Source: Candidatus Omnitrophota bacterium (GTDB taxonomy: Bacteria > Omnitrophota > Gorgyraeia > Zapsychrales > JANLHA01). Taken from it: a stretch of 64,000 nt of DNA. The stretch is taken from NCBI GenBank assembly GCA_031423615.1, contig JANPFV010000104.1, forward strand, positions 32,170 to 96,169, written 5' to 3'. The notes under the pieces are model-generated. The model worked only from the letters and a program-made list of their open reading frames with translations, was not told the origin of the DNA and ran no database searches. Shown here in pieces: positions 2,018-20,463 of this stretch; within the stretch, counting starts at the first letter, position 1, and each line of letters starts with the position of its first letter. The position numbers were made by a program, and so were the translations under genes.

Positions 2018-2521
2018 ATGCCTGTCGCAGATTTAAAAGATGTCCGTCCACCGGTGGATTTGCCGCCCAATTATTTTTTGTTGTTTGTATTTTTGGGCCT
2101 TATCGTTTTGGCCGCGTTATTTTTCTTATTTTGTTGGCTTCTGCCCAGGCTTAAGTCAAAGACGGCCGTGCCGGTTGTGGTCCGTCCGGCGTGGGAAATC
2201 GCCAACGAAGAATTGGCGGCCCTGGAGAAAGAAAATCTTCCCGGGCGCGGCGAAGCCAAGGAATATTTCAGCCGTCTTTCCGACATTGTCCGTCATTATC
2301 TTGAACGCCGGTTTTCCGTTAGTGCTCCGGAAATGACGACGGATGAATTTTTGTTGCATGTCAAAACCATGGTCGTACTCCACGATCAACACAAGGAATC
2401 GTTAAAGGAATTTTTGATCGCAAGCGACATGGTAAAATTCGCGCGTTACGGTTCATCGGTTGGAGAAATGACCAAGGCTTTTACGGTCGCCAAACGTTTA
2501 GTAGATGAGACGATACCCTGA
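2018..2521 (+). CDS. Small membrane protein of the Bat operon (DUF4381-like position)
   Basis: N-terminal hydrophobic helix (LLFVFLGLIVLAALFFLFCWLL); sits between the DUF58 and BatA genes as in known Bat operons. Confidence 0.55.
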   Translation: MPVADLKDVRPPVDLPPNYFLLFVFLGLIVLAALFFLFCWLLPRLKSKTAVPVVVRPAWEIANEELAALEKENLPGRGEAKEYFSRLSDIVRHYLERRFSVSAPEMTTDEFLLHVKTMVVLHDQHKESLKEFLIASDMVKFARYGSSVGEMTKAFTVAKRLVDETIP

Positions 2522-3519
2522 TGATTTTTAAAGACCCTTTAGTTTTGGTTTTTGTTCCCGTCATGGTATTGCTGGCGTTGTGGTTTACACGCCGAAATCA
2601 AAACGCCGGCCTGCGTTTTCCTTCCGACGATTTAGTCCAGACGCTGACTAAGACATGGAAAATTCGTTTGGCCAAAACACCGTTTTATTTTCGTTTATTG
2701 GCCTTGGGCTTGTTGGTCGTGGCCTTGGCCGGTCCGCGTTCGGTTCTTGAAGAAACCAAGCACGAAAGCGAAGGGATTGATATCGTGCTGGCCATTGATG
2801 GTTCGGGTAGTATGGCGGCCTTAGATTTTACTTTGCATGGTCAGCGTTACAATCGTCTGGACGTGGTTAAGGATGTTGTTAAAGAATTTATCGATGCTCG
2901 CACTTCGGACCGCATCGGTCTGGTGGCTTTCGGCGGGCGGGCTTACACCGTGAGTCCATTGACGACCGATTATATTTGGCTGAAAACGAATTTGGAACGG
3001 ATCACGCTGAATATGATGGACGATGGCACGGCGATCGGTTCGGCGATCAGTGCATCCTTATCGCGTTTGGAAAAAAGCCAGGCCAAAAGTAAAATCATTA
3101 TTCTTCTGACTGATGGAATAAACAATCGCGGCAAGATTGATCCTTTGTCGGCGGCGAAAGCGGCACAGGCTTTGGGTGTAAAAATTTATACGATCGGCGC
3201 GGGAACCAACGGCGTGGCGCCTGTCCCGGTAGCGCAAGACATGTGGGGTCAGCAGGTCTATCAAAATATGGCGGTTGAAATTGACGAAGAGACCCTTAAA
3301 ACGGTGGCCTCGTTAACCGGCGGAAAATATTTTCGGGCGACGGACACAGATTCTTTGCGCCAGGTGTATAAAGAAATCGACCGTTTGGAAAAAACGAAGA
3401 TTGAGGAAACGGGTTATCGGGAATATAAGGAATTGTTTGGATATTTCCTTAGCGCCGCATGGCTCCTCTTGGTGGCGGCGCTTATTCTGGAAAACACTTT
3501 ACTTTTGAGGTTGCCTTAA
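2521..3519 (+). CDS. batA: BatA-like vWA-domain membrane protein
   Basis: N-terminal TM segments, vWA MIDAS motif (DGSGSM) and a C-terminal TM; TGATG overlap with the upstream gene. Confidence 0.8.
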   Translation: MIFKDPLVLVFVPVMVLLALWFTRRNQNAGLRFPSDDLVQTLTKTWKIRLAKTPFYFRLLALGLLVVALAGPRSVLEETKHESEGIDIVLAIDGSGSMAALDFTLHGQRYNRLDVVKDVVKEFIDARTSDRIGLVAFGGRAYTVSPLTTDYIWLKTNLERITLNMMDDGTAIGSAISASLSRLEKSQAKSKIIILLTDGINNRGKIDPLSAAKAAQALGVKIYTIGAGTNGVAPVPVAQDMWGQQVYQNMAVEIDEETLKTVASLTGGKYFRATDTDSLRQVYKEIDRLEKTKIEETGYREYKELFGYFLSAAWLLLVAALILENTLLLRLP

Positions 3520-4530
3520 ATGAAATTCGGCGCGGCGCAAAATTTTCTTTGGTTATGGAATTTTATTCCCTTGTTTGCTTTCTTGTGGTGGGCGGGACGT
3601 CATAAACTGCGCCGGCTAAAATTATTTTCTCAGCCTGAACTTTTGGCACACATCGCCCAAGGTTATGACACTCAACGCCAGCGGCTGCAAAGGTTATTTT
3701 TTATTCTTGCCGCTGTTTTTAGTATTCTGGCTTTGGTCCGTCCGCAATGGGGTTATGAAATCCGTGACATTAAGCGGCGGGGTAGCGACATTCTTCTTGT
3801 CGTCGATGTTTCGCGCAGTATGCTAACTGAGGACGTGAAGCCCAGCCGTCTTAAGCGGGCCAAGCTGGCGATAAAAGACCTTGTCAAGGAGCTCAAGGGC
3901 GACCGCATCGGTTTGATCGCTTTTGCGGGCGATGCTTTTTTGACCTGTCCTTTGACGGTTGATTATAACGGTTTTCTATTGAATTTAGAAGATCTCAGTC
4001 CTGATGCTGTGCCGCGGGGCGGAACAAATATCAGCGCCGCACTCAGGGAGGCGCTTAAAGAATACGACACTGCCTCCGGAAAATATAAGGCCCTGATCAT
4101 TATTACCGACGGTGAGAATTTGGAAGAGGACCCTCTGTCCACGGTCGAGAAGGCCAAGGACAAGGGGATCAAAATTTTTGCTGTGGGTGTGGGAACGAAG
4201 GAAGGGGAACTGATTCAGTTGACAAATGAAAAAGGCGAGACGGATTTTTTGAAGGACAGCCAGGGAAACTTTGTGAAATCCCGTTTGAATGAAGGGTTGT
4301 TACAGAAAATGGCTTTGGCCACCGGCGGAGTTTATGTGCGGGCCAGCGGAACGCAGTTTGGCTTGGACCTGATTTATGAACAGGAAATTTCCAAATTTGA
4401 AAAAAGGGAATTTCAGACTAAATCGGAGCGGCGCTATTTTGAGCGGTTTCAGTTTCCCTTGTCGGCTGCTATTTTATTTTTGATTTTGGAAATCACCTGG
4501 CCGCTGCGCAAAAGGATGCGAGACGTATGA
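3520..4530 (+). CDS. batB: BatB-like vWA-domain membrane protein
   Basis: vWA domain (VVDVSRSM ... LIIITDGE), TM segments at both ends. Confidence 0.8.
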   Translation: MKFGAAQNFLWLWNFIPLFAFLWWAGRHKLRRLKLFSQPELLAHIAQGYDTQRQRLQRLFFILAAVFSILALVRPQWGYEIRDIKRRGSDILLVVDVSRSMLTEDVKPSRLKRAKLAIKDLVKELKGDRIGLIAFAGDAFLTCPLTVDYNGFLLNLEDLSPDAVPRGGTNISAALREALKEYDTASGKYKALIIITDGENLEEDPLSTVEKAKDKGIKIFAVGVGTKEGELIQLTNEKGETDFLKDSQGNFVKSRLNEGLLQKMALATGGVYVRASGTQFGLDLIYEQEISKFEKREFQTKSERRYFERFQFPLSAAILFLILEITWPLRKRMRDV

Positions 4531-5456
4531 AAAAAATAACGCTGGCTTTGATTTTATTTTTCATAGGGGCCGGGCCGGGCTTTTGCGCTTCAAAGGAGTC
4601 GCTTGTCAAGAAGGGCAATGCCCTTTATCAGAAAAATAATTTTGCCGAATCGGTTAAGGAGTACGAGACGGCTTTAAAAAAAGATCCGGAATCACCGGCG
4701 ATCAATTTTGATTTGGGCACTGCCTTGTATAAAAACAAGAAATATGCCGAAGCGATTTCTTATTTACAAAAAGGACTTTTAAGCAAGGACCCGCTCTTAA
4801 AGAAGCAGGCCCATTTTAATTTAGGCGATGCCTTCTATAAAAAAGGGCGGGAGCTAGAGGGCAGTCGTCTGGATGAAGCTATTGCGGATTTGGAAGAATC
4901 GCTGCGCCAGTTTGAGGCCGTTAGGAATGTTGATGACAAGGATAATGACGCCAAGTATAATCATGACACTGTCAAAAAGGAATTGGAGCGTTTGAAAGAA
5001 AAGAAAGAACAGCGGCGGAAAAAAGGCGGCGATCAGTCAGAGAACGAGCCAGAGCAAAAGAAAAACCAAGGTTCGAAAGAAGATACTTCAACGTCGTCGC
5101 CGGAGAAAAACCAGCCGGATCAGAAGAAAGACCAAGGCTCAAAAGAAGATACTTCCCAGCCGTCGCTACAAAAAAGCCATACGGACAAAAACCTTTCGTA
5201 CGAGACGGCCCAGCACAGCGAAGAAAAAAAGGAAGAAAATAAAGCCGAGCAAGGTTTTTCCCAGAGCAAGGATAAAAAGACCGCATTAGAAAAAGATTCC
5301 CCGTTGCAGGCGGTTCAGATAAAGCCGGGGCAAATGAGTAAGGAAGAAGCCAAGGCGCTGTTAGAACATTTTGAACAGGGCGAAGAAGCCCCGGCCTTGT
5401 TAAATTTTGGCAAACGTAAGTCATCCGAAGAATCTGTGGTTTCGAAAGATTGGTAA
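4527..5456 (+). CDS. batC: BatC-like TPR-repeat protein with a K/E/Q/S-rich low-complexity tail
   Basis: Signal peptide or lipobox-like N-terminus (FCAS); TPR-like YxxALxxxP repeats; the C-terminal half is charged, low-complexity, and contains a tandem repeat. Confidence 0.7.
   Translation: MKKITLALILFFIGAGPGFCASKESLVKKGNALYQKNNFAESVKEYETALKKDPESPAINFDLGTALYKNKKYAEAISYLQKGLLSKDPLLKKQAHFNLGDAFYKKGRELEGSRLDEAIADLEESLRQFEAVRNVDDKDNDAKYNHDTVKKELERLKEKKEQRRKKGGDQSENEPEQKKNQGSKEDTSTSSPEKNQPDQKKDQGSKEDTSQPSLQKSHTDKNLSYETAQHSEEKKEENKAEQGFSQSKDKKTALEKDSPLQAVQIKPGQMSKEEAKALLEHFEQGEEAPALLNFGKRKSSEESVVSKDW
5056..5170 (+). repeat. Imperfect tandem direct repeat (about 66 nt unit, 2 copies) inside batC
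   Basis: Two related nucleotide copies encoding ...KKNQGSKEDTSTSSPEKNQPDQ / KKDQGSKEDTSQPSLQK... Confidence 0.5.
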
Positions 5457-5457
5457 A

Positions 5458-7299
5458 ATGAAGCTATTGGTAAAAGGGATTTTTATTGTGATTTGTGGAG
5501 TCTTGTCCGTCGGCAGCTTTTCAAATCCGGTGGACGCGGAAGATGTCTCAGTTAAGGCCGCCGTGAGTTCAAAAACGGTGGAATTAGGCTCGGCTTTGAC
5601 GCTGACGGTTACGATTGACGGTGCGCAGGAAGTGCCGCCGGTCCAATTACCAAAGATTGAAGGAGTCGAAACGCGCTATCTCGGCCCGAACATACGCGTC
5701 TCGACCATCAACGGTGCAAAGTTTCACTCGATGGGCGTGAGGTTTTCTGTGATCCCGCTTAAAACGGGACAGTTTCAGATTCCGGCGCTTACCATTTCCT
5801 TGGACGGTAAAGATTATACGACAACCCCCATTGATATTACGGTCATGGCCGCCACTGCGGGCCCACCGGGGCAGACCGGCGCAAAAGATAAAGATGCTGC
5901 ATCCTCTTTGCAGGACAAAATTTTTATTGTTCTGGGGACATCTAAAAAAGAGACCTATGTGAGTGAACCGATTCCCGTCGTGATAAAACTTTTTATCAAT
6001 GACCTGGCGGTCAAGAATGTGCAATATCCCTCCCTTGAGCATGATGGTTTTGCGGTGGAAGATTTTCCCGAACCGCGCCGCGGCCGGCAGACCTTGGGTG
6101 ATGTGAATTATCAGGTGATGGAATTTCGGACCTTTATTTATCCTACCCGTACTGGTGATCTGAATCTTGGCCCCGCCCATTTAGGCGCTAATATCATGAT
6201 TAAAAATTCCCGCCGCGAAGATATGCCGGGGGAATTTAACGATATCTTTACCGATGATCTTTTTGATAATTTTTTGGGCCGGTATGAAACCAAGACCATT
6301 ATGCTGGAAAGCGCCAATATCGGTCTTAAAGTTCTTCCTTTGCCGCCAGAAGGCCGACCCCAGGATTTTTCCGGCGGGGTAGGAAAATATAATTTTGATA
6401 TAACGGTCAGTCCGGCGGAAGTGAAAGTCGGCGACCCTTTGACCGTCCGCATGAAAATTGCGGGTGACGGAAATTTGCAGGCCGTGAATTTCCCGCTCTT
6501 TAAAACTTCTCCGGATTTTAAAGTTTACGATCCCAAGATTACGTCCCAAAACGGCGAAAAAGTCCTCGAGCAGGTCATCATTCCCAATCACGATCAAGTC
6601 AAGGAACTCCCCGCCGTAAGTTTTAGTTTTTTTGATCCTGCGGATAAGCAGTATCATACGATAACCAAGGGACCTTTTCCTTTGCTGGTCAGTCCTTTGG
6701 CAAAAGGGGAGGAATCGAAAGTGGTCGGTTTAACGGCTCCGGCCATGGGGGCAAAACCCGTCGCTGGCCCGGAGGAGTTAGGAAGGGACATCCGGTTTAT
6801 TAAGGAAAGCATCGGTCGGGTGCAAAGACAGGGGAACATTTTATACCGCCAGCCCGGATTTATTTTAAGTGTCATCTTGCTGGTGATGGTTTGGCTGGGG
6901 TTGTTTGTAAACTTTGAATACCGCAAAAGGATTATGACGGATGTCCGATGGGCGCGGCGTTTACAGGCTCCGCGGCAGGCCCAGGAGGGGCTGGCCCAAG
7001 CCGGAAATTTCTTGCGGCAGAATGACGTCCGCAATTTTTATGACCGCATTTATAAAACCCTGCAGGATTATTTTGGCAATAATTTCCATCTCTCGTCGGC
7101 TGATGTGACCCTCGGCGGGATTGAGACTCGTCTGAAACCCCAGCATAAAAATAATGCGGCGCTGGCCTCTTTGCGGGAAATTTTTGCGGAATGTGAATTG
7201 GTGCGTTTTGCTTGCGCCCAGGTCTCGGAAGAAAAAATGAAAAATATTTTTCAGAAAACCCAAGAAGTCATTGATTTTTTTGAACGGAATTACAAATGA
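5458..7299 (+). CDS. batD: BatD-like oxygen-tolerance protein
   Basis: Signal peptide, large periplasmic region, C-terminal TM helix plus TPR-like tail; position after BatC. The ORF track starts at 5407 inside batC; the ATG at 5458 lies just after the batC stop. Confidence 0.7.
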   Translation: MKLLVKGIFIVICGVLSVGSFSNPVDAEDVSVKAAVSSKTVELGSALTLTVTIDGAQEVPPVQLPKIEGVETRYLGPNIRVSTINGAKFHSMGVRFSVIPLKTGQFQIPALTISLDGKDYTTTPIDITVMAATAGPPGQTGAKDKDAASSLQDKIFIVLGTSKKETYVSEPIPVVIKLFINDLAVKNVQYPSLEHDGFAVEDFPEPRRGRQTLGDVNYQVMEFRTFIYPTRTGDLNLGPAHLGANIMIKNSRREDMPGEFNDIFTDDLFDNFLGRYETKTIMLESANIGLKVLPLPPEGRPQDFSGGVGKYNFDITVSPAEVKVGDPLTVRMKIAGDGNLQAVNFPLFKTSPDFKVYDPKITSQNGEKVLEQVIIPNHDQVKELPAVSFSFFDPADKQYHTITKGPFPLLVSPLAKGEESKVVGLTAPAMGAKPVAGPEELGRDIRFIKESIGRVQRQGNILYRQPGFILSVILLVMVWLGLFVNFEYRKRIMTDVRWARRLQAPRQAQEGLAQAGNFLRQNDVRNFYDRIYKTLQDYFGNNFHLSSADVTLGGIETRLKPQHKNNAALASLREIFAECELVRFACAQVSEEKMKNIFQKTQEVIDFFERNYK

Positions 7300-8018
7300 A
7301 GAAAATTATTTTTATCCTTATTTTTATAGCCACGGTGACGGGCCCGGCCCGCGCGCAGACCGTGGATTTTGCCCAGGCCAATACGGCTTACCGAGACGGA
7401 AAATATGCCGAGGCCATCAAGGGTTATGAAGGTATCCTCCACAGCGGAACGGAAAGCGGCGAAATTTTTTACAATCTGGGAAACAGTTACTATAAAAATA
7501 AGCAATTGGGCAAGGCAATCCTTAATTATGAACGGGCGCGACAGTTGCTGCCGCGCGATGCGGAAGTGGCGGCCAATTATAAACTGGCCTTGTCTGATGT
7601 TCCGTCGCGAATTGATGCAAAAGGGAAGGTGATAGACAAGCTTTTCGAAAGTCATATTTATTTTTATACCGTCAATGAAATGGTCTTGCTATTGAGCCTG
7701 CTTTTTTTTCTTTTTTTGGCCTGTCATCTGATGAGATTGTATGTCAAGTGGTCGCTTACGCCTCTGATGATTGTGGGAATAGTTTTTTTCATTTTTGCGG
7801 TCGGATTGGAAAGAAAATTACAGATAGAAAAGGATGCGGGTATTATGATTTTATCGGCACCGGCGAGGTTTGAACCAAACGACAAGGCCACGGTTTATTT
7901 TGAGCTTCCGGAAGGACAGAAAGTTAAAATGCAAGGCCGGGAAGGCGAATGGTCAAAAATTGAACGGCCTGACGGGAAGTCCGGGTGGGTGCCCACCGCA
8001 GCAGTGGAAAGAATTTAA
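7296..8018 (+). CDS. batE: BatE-like TPR + SH3b-domain protein
   Basis: Signal peptide, TPR repeats (YRDGKYAEAIKGYE, YNLGNSYYKNKQLGKAILNYERA), TM segment, C-terminal SH3-like motif (GWVPTAAVE). Confidence 0.7.
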   Translation: MKKIIFILIFIATVTGPARAQTVDFAQANTAYRDGKYAEAIKGYEGILHSGTESGEIFYNLGNSYYKNKQLGKAILNYERARQLLPRDAEVAANYKLALSDVPSRIDAKGKVIDKLFESHIYFYTVNEMVLLLSLLFFLFLACHLMRLYVKWSLTPLMIVGIVFFIFAVGLERKLQIEKDAGIMILSAPARFEPNDKATVYFELPEGQKVKMQGREGEWSKIERPDGKSGWVPTAAVERI

Positions 8019-8026
8019 GACAAGGG

Positions 8027-8563
8027 ATGAGAATGCGTTTTCTTTATTTTGTTTTTGCTGTTTTCGTTGCGGCTGTCATCCCCTTACCGGTAGGAGCAGA
8101 CCAAACGTTTTCTGAATTTTGTAGCCAGATATATGCGGAAAGTTCAAAATGCCCGCAAGCGGCTTGTCAATTGCAATGTGCTAGCGGAGTTTCTGTCCCG
8201 GATTGTCCGCAAATTTGTATTCCTAAAGAGTGCAAGTCCATTAGTCCGCAGAATTGTCCGCCAAAGTTTTGCAGTATTGTCGAAGACTGCTCGAAAAAAA
8301 AGATTTGCCTTCCAAAAATTCCTGCCGACCAAGTCCCGGAATGCGGCGCTTTGGCCTATAGTGCCCAGGATGTCGAATGCTGTAAGGGCTTAGTCAAGCG
8401 CTGCGGGTTCGATTATCTTGATGGAAAATGCAATATGGAAGGGAAAAATACGTCCTACCGTTTCCCCATCTGTATTCCCTGCGGCGACGGGATTTGCGCT
8501 AACTTTGAGAACCATTGCAACTGCCCCGAAGACTGCAAGAAAGATATTATCCCGTTAGATTAG
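8027..8563 (+). CDS. Cysteine-rich secreted protein (about 22 Cys in about 155 mature residues)
   Basis: Signal peptide MRMRFLYFVFAVFVAAVIPLPVGA followed by dense Cys spacing (CPQAACQLQC, CIPCGDGICANFENHCNCPEDC); AAGGG RBS; starts 9 nt after batE. The ORF-track 5' extension (7985) overlaps batE. Confidence 0.6.
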   Translation: MRMRFLYFVFAVFVAAVIPLPVGADQTFSEFCSQIYAESSKCPQAACQLQCASGVSVPDCPQICIPKECKSISPQNCPPKFCSIVEDCSKKKICLPKIPADQVPECGALAYSAQDVECCKGLVKRCGFDYLDGKCNMEGKNTSYRFPICIPCGDGICANFENHCNCPEDCKKDIIPLD

Positions 8564-8965
8564 GTCGATGATTTTTTTAACGCGCCAATGCGAGTTGACC
8601 CACAGTCCGGTAATGGGATAAGAAGGAAAGAGTTTTTTGATTTTCTTTGACCCGTCGATGATTTGAACTTTATGCGTTTCATAGGGGGCGGGATTCCCGC
8701 GGCAGTCGAAATGCCCCACGACAAAAATATGCGATGAATGGTTGATTGTCGTTGAGATTTTAATCCCCGTCAGGATGGCGTCCATCTGGGCGTGCGGGGT
8801 CGTCAGGATCTTGTCCATGCCCGGGCCTGAAATAATGTCTACGAATTTTACTTTGGAACTGCGACGGATCCAATTGATGACCGGAATTTGGATGCGGCCG
8901 TCCATGCACGTCAGGCACGTGGCGCGATGATCGTCGCGCAGGTGAGGTTTGGGAGCCCTGGTCAT
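8555..8965 (-). CDS. Minimal beta-class carbonic-anhydrase-like zinc-binding protein (136 aa)
   Basis: CxDxR motif (C20-M-D22-G-R24) and HxxC motif (VVGHFDCRG) at beta-CA-like spacing; SSHIFVVGHFDCRG resembles E. coli Can VEHIIICGHYGCGG. It is much shorter than canonical beta-CAs and its C-terminus abuts the convergent Cys-rich gene. Confidence 0.45.
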   Translation of the reverse strand: MTRAPKPHLRDDHRATCLTCMDGRIQIPVINWIRRSSKVKFVDIISGPGMDKILTTPHAQMDAILTGIKISTTINHSSHIFVVGHFDCRGNPAPYETHKVQIIDGSKKIKKLFPSYPITGLWVNSHWRVKKIIDLI

Positions 8966-10845
8966 GAATTATTGATGAAGCGTAAATAATCTTCGATTTT
9001 TCCGTCACGCATACAGCATTCAATGATTTGCTGACCCAGCGGATCGAGGCCCGGATCCTTAAGATAGACAGACAATTCCTTTTTAAAAAAGTCCGTTAAG
9101 ATTTTCGCGCCGATATCGTATGTTTCTTCGCCAACTTCCGGTTGCACTTCCACCTGCAGAAAGTCCCGGTTCAGGAAAAACCCTTCAATCTGCAAGGATT
9201 GGGCGGTGTAGCCTAAAAGCGGGCAGCGGGCGGGTTCTAATTGGTTTGGCTTAAAGAAGGCGCTTCCTCGACGGGCGAGATACTCGCGCACAATCCATTG
9301 CGGCATAAAGCCCACTTTCCACGCCCCAATATATTGATTGGGCGTGAGAGAATATTTGGTGCGCGGAGTTTGGATGATCTGTTTTAAAAGTAAATTGGCT
9401 TGATCCACACGGCGGCCCGTTGCGAAAGGCCAATAGGAACCGACCCCTTCGCTGGACATGCCTTCCGTCGCGGTAATGCTGGGATTGTCATACCCGCGCG
9501 GTGAAACCAAACGCCACAACCACGCTAAGGAACGCGGCAAAATATGAAGCATGCCGATGATTCCGTAGGTGGGATTTTCCGTCGTGCAAGGAGGGGTGCG
9601 GATCCCGAAACTGCGGATGTTGACTTCCACTGGATTGCGGACAATGCCCGGCACGATATCCCGAGGAATAATCACCCGCGGATTAGGGCACGGAATTCCG
9701 GGGGCATCTTCCGTGGGTTCCCAGATCAAGCAGGTGGCTTTGGGAACGGAATAAAGATTTAAAAAGACGAGGGGCTCTTTGGGGGCCATGGTCATTTCTT
9801 CCATAAAGCGGTCGGTGCCGTATTTGGTGATGTGGTTGACGCGCACAAACCAGCCTTGCTCCGCATCTTGGACGATCAATTTTCCGTTTTCACCTTGGAT
9901 CGACGGCGGGCAAAGAGCCATGTCATCGGTCACCGGATTTAAACGGCAGCCTTGAAAAAGAGGAATATATCGGCTTTTGCCGGTGACAATGTTGGTCCCG
10001 GTCAGTAAGCGGCCGTCGGGTTCGCGGTGCGGATACTGCAGCATTTCGCTTTTCCCGCCGCCGCTGGCCCCTTCGTGCATGATGACCAATTCATTATCAT
10101 AAGGTGTGGTGACAACAACGGTTGAACCGTGGGCCGTAATCCAGCCTTCCTTTTCACCGAGATTTAAAAGAACGCCGTAAATCCCTTTTTTAGCGCTGGG
10201 GCCGGGATAGAGGTTGAGAGAAAAAATTTCATGGATATTGTCTCCGCGGTGATGGACGACAATTTGCTTGCCCTGACAATGCGTATGGCGGAATGTGGGG
10301 GCCAAGAAAATGACAGCCTTGGGCGCCCAAATTTCGGGAAGGTCTTTTTTATTGACCATGCCCTGCAGGCTGGCCAGCGACGCGGCAAAGAAGGCGGCGT
10401 TTTTCGGGCCAATCAAAAGCGAGGTGTATCCGAGCTCCTTGCTGCCGGAATAAAACGGTACGATAAGAAGGTCCTGATCTTTGAGCCATTCAATGACTTC
10501 CTTGCGAAACTGCGGGAAAGGCGTTTTGAACCTGTCGCTGAAATGCGCCTTGTCCGTGGCTTTTCCGTCGGCAATGACCATAGTGTCCGGATCGCGGCGG
10601 CGCATATAAGATTCAGGATAGTTGGCGGCGATCCCGTTTTTACAACGGTCAACTGTGGCTTCAATCACGCGGCCATGCCCAGGAATATCATAGGCGACTT
10701 CGAAGCTGTCCGTTTCAGGGCTTCCTAAAGACAGGGAGGCCAATTCATGAAAATCCTTGGCAATTGTTACACTTTTGGCATTTTCGAATAATTCGGCCAA
10801 TTCGTTGTTGGCGAGAAATTTTTTCCAGTCCGTGGCTGCGATCAT
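8962..10845 (-). CDS. Large uncharacterised protein with a single PEPCK/HprK-superfamily P-loop (GASGGGKSE)
   Basis: 627-aa ORF; P-loop HEGASGGGKSEML at about residue 258 matches the GxSGxGKSE signature of HPr kinase, and its location resembles the ATP-dependent PEP carboxykinase P-loop (preceded by GEKEG, cf. PckA GEKGD); ATGA overlap with the downstream beta-CA-like gene. Confidence 0.55.
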   Translation of the reverse strand: MIAATDWKKFLANNELAELFENAKSVTIAKDFHELASLSLGSPETDSFEVAYDIPGHGRVIEATVDRCKNGIAANYPESYMRRRDPDTMVIADGKATDKAHFSDRFKTPFPQFRKEVIEWLKDQDLLIVPFYSGSKELGYTSLLIGPKNAAFFAASLASLQGMVNKKDLPEIWAPKAVIFLAPTFRHTHCQGKQIVVHHRGDNIHEIFSLNLYPGPSAKKGIYGVLLNLGEKEGWITAHGSTVVVTTPYDNELVIMHEGASGGGKSEMLQYPHREPDGRLLTGTNIVTGKSRYIPLFQGCRLNPVTDDMALCPPSIQGENGKLIVQDAEQGWFVRVNHITKYGTDRFMEEMTMAPKEPLVFLNLYSVPKATCLIWEPTEDAPGIPCPNPRVIIPRDIVPGIVRNPVEVNIRSFGIRTPPCTTENPTYGIIGMLHILPRSLAWLWRLVSPRGYDNPSITATEGMSSEGVGSYWPFATGRRVDQANLLLKQIIQTPRTKYSLTPNQYIGAWKVGFMPQWIVREYLARRGSAFFKPNQLEPARCPLLGYTAQSLQIEGFFLNRDFLQVEVQPEVGEETYDIGAKILTDFFKKELSVYLKDPGLDPLGQQIIECCMRDGKIEDYLRFINNS

Positions 10846-20035: not shown

Positions 20036-20111
20036 GACCCACTAGCTCATCAGGTAGAGCACAGCCCTTTTAAGGCTGGTGTGCCGCGTTCGAGTCGCGG
20101 GTGGGTCACCA
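20036..20111 (+). tRNA. tRNA-Lys (anticodon TTT), CCA encoded
   Basis: Acceptor GACCCAC/GTGGGTC, D-arm GCTCATCAGGTAGAGC, anticodon loop CTTTTAA, T-arm GTTCGAGTC, ends ACCA. Confidence 0.7.
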
Positions 20112-20219
20112 ATATTTTTATTGCGTGCCCGGGCCAGTGACGAAGCCCCTTTTGTGGGACGCATCAGATCAAGAGAAGTTTTAACGTTCGTAGAGTATTA
20201 ATTTTGTAGAGAGCTCCAC

Positions 20220-20300
20220 GGGCGGATGGCGGAATGGTAGACGCGCATGTCTTAGGAACATGTGAGGAGACTCGTGGAGGTTCAAGTCCTCTTCCGCCCA
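20220..20300 (+). tRNA. tRNA-Leu (anticodon TAG), long variable arm
   Basis: Acceptor GGGCGGA/TCCGCCC, D-arm GCGGAATGGTAGACGC, anticodon stem CATGT/ACATG with loop CTTAGGA, T-arm GGAGGTTCAAGTCCTCT. Confidence 0.65.
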
Positions 20301-20389
20301 TATGTGATTTAGGAAGGTCATCTAGGAATGTAATTTGGGAATGTGATTGAGGAGTGGAGGTTCTCCCAGAATTTAGTTCTTTCTATTTT

Positions 20390-20463
20390 GCGGCGGTAAT
20401 TCAGTTGGCTAGAATGCGACCTTGCCAAGGTCGATGTCATGGGTTCAAATCCCATCCGCCGCT
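20390..20463 (+). tRNA. tRNA-Gly (anticodon GCC)
   Basis: Acceptor GCGGCGG/CCGCCGC, anticodon stem CGACC/GGTCG with loop TTGCCAA, T-arm ATGGGTTCAAATCCCAT. Confidence 0.7.

Follow-up and report, generated by a model that had tools for sequence, protein, structure and literature searches.

We analysed a stretch of 64,000 nucleotides (nt) from a Candidatus Omnitrophota bacterium (GenBank assembly GCA_031423615.1, contig JANPFV010000104.1, positions 32,170 to 96,169 of the forward strand; hereafter "the window"), in which a gene for a highly cysteine-rich protein follows a Bat (Bacteroides aerotolerance) operon. This operon of moxR, a DUF58 gene and batA-E goes back to Tang et al. 1999 as summarised in PMC3557215, and that summary treats Bat function as still unresolved, the idea of an "export of reducing power" as never confirmed, and Leptospira bat mutants as being without an oxidative-stress defect. 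An earlier interpretation made from the letters of the window (the sequence-only reading) had proposed that the operon is complete here (moxR, DUF58, a small transmembrane (TM) protein and batA-E) and that the cysteine-rich gene is appended to it as a ninth member. The operon is complete, in that all its genes could be placed and all except the TM protein have Pfam support, and the features of this part of the window are as follows.

113-1114, + strand: moxR (Pfam AAA_3, E 2e-65)
1120-2016, + strand: DUF58 gene (Pfam DUF58)
2018-2521, + strand: TM protein, 167 amino acids (aa), no Pfam match
2521-3519, + strand: batA (Pfam BatA and VWA)
3520-4530, + strand: batB (Pfam VWA)
4527-5456, + strand: batC (Pfam TPR)
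5407(5458)-7299, + strand: batD (Pfam BatD), with two candidate starts
7296-8018, + strand: batE (Pfam TPR and SH3_3)
8022-8026, + strand: AAGGG, a Shine-Dalgarno-like sequence, 3 nt past the batE stop and 6 nt before ATG 8033
8033-8563, + strand: cysteine-rich gene from its probable start, 176 aa plus stop, with an alternative upstream ATG at 8027; identical to database entry P0001 (176 aa)
8033-8098, + strand: predicted Sec-type signal peptide MRFLYFVFAVFVAAVIPLPVGA, predicted cleavage after VGA, mature start DQ, Kyte-Doolittle mean 2.2-2.6 over the first 20 residues
8120-8308, + strand: N-terminal Cys module, residues 30-92, 11 Cys, short beta-strands predicted at a pLDDT (predicted local distance difference test) of 93-98
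8324-8536, + strand: C-terminal Cys module, residues 98-168, 11 Cys, with profile matches in multi-copy proteins (alignment A5)
8480-8536, + strand: 19-residue mini-repeat CGDGICANFENHCNCPEDC, repeated 7-9 times in proteins P0115 and P0186
8555-8965, - strand: convergent Pro_CA_2 gene (Pfam PF20393), its 3' end overlapping the cysteine-rich gene by 9 nt

The open reading frame (ORF) is intact from 8027 to 8563 on the + strand (178 aa), and all of its 22 Cys lie past the hydrophobic N-terminus. The sequence-only reading had set the gene nine nt after batE behind an AAGGG ribosome-binding site of its own; the AAGGG stands, but the start codon is probably ATG 8033, because the AAGGG then has a spacing of 6 nt, P0001 has the corresponding length, and the N-termini of homologues (MRF, MRL or MRY) align with this ATG. 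The alternative ATG lies 8 nt past the batE stop but is directly abutted by the AAGGG, and counted from 8033 the gap to batE is 14 nt. As claimed originally for a signal-peptide protein with about 22 Cys in about 155 mature residues, ~154 mature residues carry 22 Cys and the motifs quoted at the time are all present; Cys makes up 12.5% of the protein, compared with a median of 0.9% and a next-highest share of 2.6% among the 55 gene-like ORFs of the window. The convergent overlap with a beta-carbonic-anhydrase-like gene that had been noticed at the 3' end is the 9-nt overlap with Pro_CA_2, and an equal overlap was found in locus L008.

A scan of positions 7200-9200 found no terminator, and promoter-like sites occurred at chance level, so the independent promoter and terminator that the sequence-only reading had named as grounds for separating the gene from the operon did not emerge above chance. 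Because only 14 nt separate the gene from batE, a Shine-Dalgarno-like sequence of its own precedes it and promoter and terminator signals stay at chance, co-transcription with bat is the simplest reading, and in the window genome the bat transcript probably extends through the cysteine-rich gene, which would be translated from its 3' end. The GC content of the ORF (0.46) is the same as that of its neighbours, and recent transfer is therefore not indicated.

Searching 5.8 billion proteins returned 47 homologue clusters (E 1e-115 to 3e-8), and those with names are Candidatus Omnitrophota metagenome-assembled genomes (MAGs). With residues numbered from Met 8033, the 47-sequence alignment has 22 invariant columns, among them C67, C75, C80, C92, C104, C116, C117, C124, C133, C147, C150, C155, C162, C164 and C168 together with G119, G125, G151, G153, E159, P165 and D167. 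Because 47 homologue clusters share invariant Cys columns, the ORF is, on comparison of its protein sequences, a real and constrained gene. The contrary explanation, a chance ORF, could draw only on the absence of an annotation or family name, and it was ruled out by protein-level conservation (35-67% identity across 47+ clusters, invariant Cys and an intact signal peptide), which leaves it a negligible probability.

Turning to family assignment, neither Pfam (E<=10) nor NCBIfam (E<=1) gave a match for the window protein, Pfam gave none for any of the 47 family members, and among multi-repeat relatives both libraries matched partner domains only and never the Cys module. A sequence-profile search of PDB reached a best E of 0.24, and comparing the predicted structure with the folds of PDB and BFVD returned no significant relative, the top matches (follistatin, IGFBP, knottin toxins) being weak and insignificant. 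A literature search on the motif strings of the module found no match, and one on cysteine-rich proteins of Omnitrophota found nothing relevant. The family is undescribed; small disulfide-rich extracytoplasmic repeat modules as such are familiar.

In its charge, its hydrophobic core and the small residues at its cleavage site, the leader MRFLYFVFAVFVAAVIPLPVGA matches a Sec/signal peptidase I leader, equivalent n/h/c regions are present in all orthologues, and no conserved twin-arginine was found among the orthologue leaders; with these features the protein is probably exported by the Sec route. Past the leader, the N-terminal module consists of three CP-x(2-3)-C-x(3-5)-C units (CPQAACQLQC, CPQICIPKEC and CPPKFCSIVEDC), and the C-terminal module follows the pattern C..CC.GLVKRCG...C...C..CGDG.C...EN.CNCPEDC. 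AlphaFold2, run on the family alignment, gave a mean pLDDT of 93.3 and a predicted template modelling score (pTM) of 0.76, with one helix after the leader and short strands. Beyond the last Cys, the closest orthologues have in common a tail KK[DE]I[IF]PL[DE] (window 8537-8560, + strand), the place of which is taken in distant orthologues by long K/E/P-rich extensions; no known sorting signal was recognised in the C-terminal tails of the orthologues.

To judge what the Cys residues do, we considered their number and their patterns of loss. The Cys count of the domain is even in 125 of 137 near-full-length relatives (22 in 94, 20 in 21, 24 in 9 and 16 in 1), and co-loss counted over 157 aligned sequences gave the following pairs.

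C49-C58: both lost in 26 sequences, only the first in 8, only the second in 4
C86-C124: both lost in 7, only the first in 1, only the second in 3
C45-C62: both lost in 4, only the first in 2, only the second in 2
C133-C162: both lost in 2, only the first in 3, only the second in 1

Because counts are even and losses pairwise, structural disulfides are favoured over redox thiols or metal sites with 3-4 ligands, and we infer that the 22 Cys form ~11 such disulfides. That C86 and C124 tend to be lost together suggests a disulfide between the two halves, and with it a single integrated fold.

These observations bear directly on whether the protein is instead a redox buffer or metal chaperone, as the sequence-only reading had ventured, or more broadly a protein that binds metal (Zn, Cu, Fe or Ca) in the periplasm or a thiol redox buffer tied to oxygen tolerance. 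Cofactor-bearing proteins use twin-arginine translocation (Tat) for export, and no parity constraint is expected for Cys acting as metal ligands; the even counts, pairwise co-loss and lack of a conserved twin-arginine in this family are not those of a metallothionein-like or Fe-S metalloprotein, and on the strength of Cys parity and pairwise loss we rejected both the redox buffer and the metal cluster. A 12.5% Cys share that includes CxxC, CxC and CC motifs would suit a metal or redox function, as would conserved D/E/N residues in CGDG.C...EN.CNCPEDC able to bind Ca2+ and a position adjoining an "aerotolerance" operon once proposed to export reducing power (PMC3557215), but the parity and pairwise loss fit disulfides, the leader resembles those of Sec and not of Tat substrates, the model shows a rigid, high-confidence fold and not metallothionein-like disorder, and no metal-binding family was matched. 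We therefore hold such a function to be quite unlikely. Ca2+ binding by the conserved D/E/N of the last repeat could nonetheless exist besides the disulfides.

The C-terminal module also occurs well outside this set of orthologues. Searching 1.84 billion representative proteins with the family profile gave 692 matches at E<=1e-3, 143 at E<=1e-10 and 36 at E<=1e-30, many of which cover only positions ~100-170, often several times per protein. Eight tandem copies of the ~65-residue module make up the arrays of P0068 and P0193, and the repeats of P0115 and P0186 consist only of the 19-residue unit CG[DN]G.C...E...NCP.DC. The partner domains are SLH (P0067), Kre9_KNH/CARDB/Gmad2 Ig-like (P0064, P0166, P0167), NosD beta-helix (P0186) and Kazal (P0167), all of these architectures being of extracytoplasmic or surface type. 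The A5 profile, built from 38 diverse modules, additionally finds small stand-alone proteins from, where named, Aenigmatarchaeota, Diapherotrites, Altiarchaeota, Polyangiaceae and Bacillota MAGs, and its 11 invariant columns, 8 of them Cys, are C19, C20, L23, C50, C53, C58, E62, C65, C67, D70 and C71. We took as the framework of the module CC-x-[GSN]-L ... C ... C-x2-C-[GP]-[DN]-G-x-C ... E ... C-x-C-x3-C plus a signal peptide or other export signal. The window protein has this framework, and its C-terminal half is, at the level of sequence, a bona fide copy of the CC.GL...CGDG.C...EN.CNCP.DC module. The suggestion that the final motif resembles repeats found in secreted proteins was thus well placed, since tandem copies occur in other secreted or surface proteins, though uncatalogued; the proposed search of the module against repeat families succeeded in finding it elsewhere and failed to tie it to a Pfam or NCBIfam model.

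Distant full-length relatives (P0044-P0047, L124-L140) lie in unrelated contexts, some with lipoprotein-type leaders and high GC. On contigs with a GC of 0.59-0.61 (L130/L131:8831-10492 and L134:5937-10042), we observed two paralogous 218-aa two-module copies with lipoprotein-like leaders (LLLSC), adjoining a very large secreted protein of 1372-1609 aa. At a distant non-Omnitrophota locus (L163:6123-8355), tandem cysteine-rich proteins with 30 and 29 Cys (profile E 5e-05 and 2e-10) are followed by a same-strand thioredoxin-like ORF (WAPWCGPC).

Small, secreted and disulfide-rich proteins also raise the thought of a secreted effector (a knottin-like inhibitor, toxin or adhesin) that host-dependent Omnitrophota would use against or on host or prey cells. 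The best fold matches, weak as they are, point to follistatin, IGFBP and knottin toxins, and a Kazal domain neighbours the module in P0167; we give this explanation a small probability.

We evaluated the linkage to Bat in both directions. For the forward direction, 32 distinct loci with informative upstream DNA were assembled from individual homologue look-ups, a metagenome scan with the family profile, and locus annotation. The cysteine-rich gene is downstream of batE, on the same strand, in 27 of these 32 loci (84%), beginning -11 to 159 nt past batE in 21 of the 32 with a most frequent gap of 19 nt. Five of the 32 (L010, L098, L100, L101, L102) have a ~140-147-aa DUF4288 gene (Pfam E 8e-16) between batE and the cysteine-rich gene, and in L097 the gap measures 378 nt and holds no intact ORF. 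Another five of the 32 (L007, L099, L105, L111, L115) keep the cysteine-rich gene while the whole moxR-to-batE cassette is absent. There, the gene comes directly after the gene for a ~1090-aa protein without a Pfam match (L007, L099, L105, L115), or exbB, exbD, a cyclophilin gene and a pqiA-like gene separate the two (L111). The coordinates of these inserts and upstream genes are as follows.

L010:10778-11200, L098:3796-4239, L100:941-1375, L101:9429-9947, L102:506-940: DUF4288 inserts, no signal peptide, cytoplasmic
L099:6644-9925, L105:6667-9969, L115:559-3828, L111:4528-7773: ~1090-aa protein gene of the loci without bat

The ~1090-aa gene is also found immediately upstream of moxR (L003, L012, L014, L092, L097, L101, L103, L108, L114, L116), partly as fragments in L003, L012, L014, L092, L103, L108 and L116. 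Because it precedes either moxR or the cysteine-rich gene, the bat cassette is either there or missing as one block, flanked by the same two neighbours. On the other side, a convergent lpxB is almost always downstream of the cysteine-rich gene; the Pro_CA_2 and DUF4914 pair (window 8555-10845, - strand) intervenes only in the closest relatives L001, L008 and L089, and at most other loci lpxB follows directly, so that this slot is variable.

For the reverse direction, a BatE scan of one genome per GTDB species yielded 80 BatE loci, of which the family hidden Markov model (HMM) matches only L008, L009 and L010, whose BatE proteins are the most similar to that of the window (55, 51 and 38% identity). 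Nine of the 11 Omnitrophota-labelled bat loci are without the gene (L012, L013, L014, L015, L017, L021, L022, L062 and L081, each searched within 10 kb and with at least 1 kb of downstream DNA), and none was found in bat loci of other phyla (Bacteroidota, Poribacteria, Endomicrobiales, KSB1, Deltaproteobacteria-labelled, Verrucomicrobia, Gemmatimonadota). A neighbour-joining tree of the orthologues does not gather the loci lacking bat into one tight clade and is too poorly resolved to count independent bat losses.

The two directions together give a divided answer. A Bat component would be expected to sit co-directionally and operon-like at the end of the cluster, and the gene does; however, it is not conserved wherever the Bat operon occurs, and, among these examined loci, it occurs at some without Bat genes. 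What became of the proposed ninth Bat gene is therefore mixed: it is appended in 27 of 32 gene-carrying loci, and it is lacking in 9 of 11 Omnitrophota-labelled bat loci and retained without bat in five. Likewise, the suggested check of related genomes for the same ORF after batE found it in the loci of one subclade and missed it in most bat loci, and the statement that it is not part of the described Bat system held; it has no Bat homology and is absent from most bat loci. An integral Bat subunit is disfavoured because bat and the gene are each found without the other and a cytoplasmic gene can be inserted at their junction; the cysteine-rich gene is, on these genomic comparisons, a lineage-restricted extra that a single Omnitrophota subclade carries at the 3' end of its bat operon.

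Since 84% of loci nevertheless retain the gene behind batE, we still allow an accessory or partner role about one chance in four. In such a role, which takes in the structural partner suggested by the sequence-only reading, the protein would, in this clade, serve the periplasmic Bat complex as an accessory subunit, a ligand or a client, engaging for instance the TPR/SH3 domains or a VWA metal-ion-dependent adhesion site (MIDAS) through an invariant acidic residue, and E159 and D167 are indeed invariant, with D152, N163 and E166 nearly so. The same-strand position right after batE, often with 0-30 nt gaps or overlaps, speaks for a partner, as do the persistence of this linkage while the downstream genes vary (Pro_CA_2/DUF4914, a TPR protein, lpxB) and the compartment common to the predicted periplasmic parts of BatC-E. 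Set against these are the five loci that keep the gene in the absence of the whole bat cassette, its lack from 9 of 11 Omnitrophota-labelled and all other-phyla bat loci, the DUF4288 gene at the junction in five loci, and the unrelated contexts of the distant full-length relatives. A bolder proposition, that in this subclade the MoxR-VWA-TPR Bat machine has the protein as its dedicated client or partner in the periplasm and that the protein is also the founding structured member of a new disulfide-rich fold family, strikes us as doubtful. If true, it would supply the first concrete candidate substrate for a system of elusive function since 1999, and a new disulfide-rich fold family spanning Omnitrophota, DPANN archaea and other uncultured bacterial lineages.

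The explanation that we favour, with a probability of about 0.5, is a Sec-exported, disulfide-locked, rigid envelope protein that serves as a binding or scaffold module and is a passenger on the bat transcript, not a core Bat component. As we picture it, a mature protein of ~154 residues would pass by the Sec route to the periplasm or cell surface, where ~11 disulfides would lock a compact, beta-rich two-module fold. The window protein would then represent, in Omnitrophota, a so far undescribed family of Cys-rich modules located outside the cytoplasm and would act as a rigid binding or scaffold element of the cell envelope, which is the most likely role because related modules are repeated building blocks of surface proteins (SLH, Ig-like, NosD beta-helix). 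Its placement on the bat transcript would be a lineage-specific passenger arrangement, because the gene and the bat cassette each occur without the other. The ORF, its conservation and genomic context, the pairing pattern of its Cys and the lack of known relatives were observed, and export, disulfide formation, co-transcription and the binding or scaffold role are the inferred parts of this model.

Several points weigh against the passenger and scaffold explanation. The five genomes without bat at the locus could hold Bat operons elsewhere, and an 84% adjacency to batE exceeds what a purely accidental neighbour might show. The assignment of disulfide pairs comes solely from co-loss statistics. 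Finally, conservation of the segment GQDVECC.GLVKRCG...DG.C.MEGKN goes beyond what a mere scaffold would require and hints at a specific partner.

As to why this matters, the family is unannotated but widespread (692 representative clusters), Pfam and NCBIfam lack a model for it, and its fold has no relative among solved structures or predicted viral ones. Its high-confidence predicted structure should help to annotate the many "hypothetical" cysteine-rich surface proteins of uncultured lineages, Omnitrophota and DPANN archaea among them. The lead for Bat biology is modest: this is the only extra exported protein recurrently attached to the bat operon in a defined clade. The evolutionary record indicates that the cysteine-rich gene is dispensable for Bat and Bat for the gene, and it therefore provides no evidence for a redox or metal function of Bat.

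Some further observations concern the Bat cluster and the rest of the window. For the TM protein at 2018-2521, NCBIfam showed a weak likeness, far short of the cut-off, to the Leptospira LB_053 family (E 2.4e-5); the equivalent proteins of relatives give faint or weak DUF4381 matches. Low-complexity sequence rich in K/E/Q/S forms a long tail in the C-terminal half of BatC and includes an internal duplication, KKNQGSKEDTSTSSPEKNQPDQKKDQGSKEDTSQPS. The TTG start listed for batD at 5407 overlaps batC by 50 nt, and ATG 5458 (MKLLVKG...) is the more likely start. At the P0033 locus (ENA ERZ27297570), a 117-aa gene at 2373-2726 with 23S_rRNA_IVP and weak bAvd Pfam matches lies between moxR and DUF58 in an otherwise canonical bat operon. 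Across the whole window, Rfam found three tRNAs only.

20036-20463, + strand: tRNA cluster Lys-TTT, Leu-TAG, Gly-GCC

Compared with known systems, the gene resembles a Bat member in being co-directional, 14 nt after the operon, and in encoding a product of the predicted same extracytoplasmic compartment as BatC-E, whereas the protein itself is without homology to any Bat protein. Within the CC.GL...CGDG.C...EN.CNCP.DC family, the Omnitrophota protein joins one copy of the module to a specific N-terminal 11-Cys module, whereas elsewhere in the family the module is arrayed in tandem or appended to large surface proteins. There is a resemblance to the Myxococcus cysteine-rich repeat (TIGR02232)/DUF4215, likewise a secreted repeat that starts with CGDG, spans ~20-40 residues and is rich in Cys and Asp/Glu. 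The HMMs of TIGR02232 and DUF4215 matched neither the window protein (NCBIfam E<=1, Pfam E<=10) nor its multi-repeat relatives, and the Cys spacing of the window family differs (C-G-D-G-x-C-x(3-5)-E-N-x-C-N-C-P-x-D-C). No significant sequence or structure similarity links the window protein to the EGF, LDL-receptor class A (LDLa), Kazal/follistatin, IGFBP N-domain or knottin folds, but these are likewise small disulfide-stabilised modules repeated in extracellular proteins, and the acidic cluster of the window protein is reminiscent of Ca2+-binding EGF and LDLa modules.
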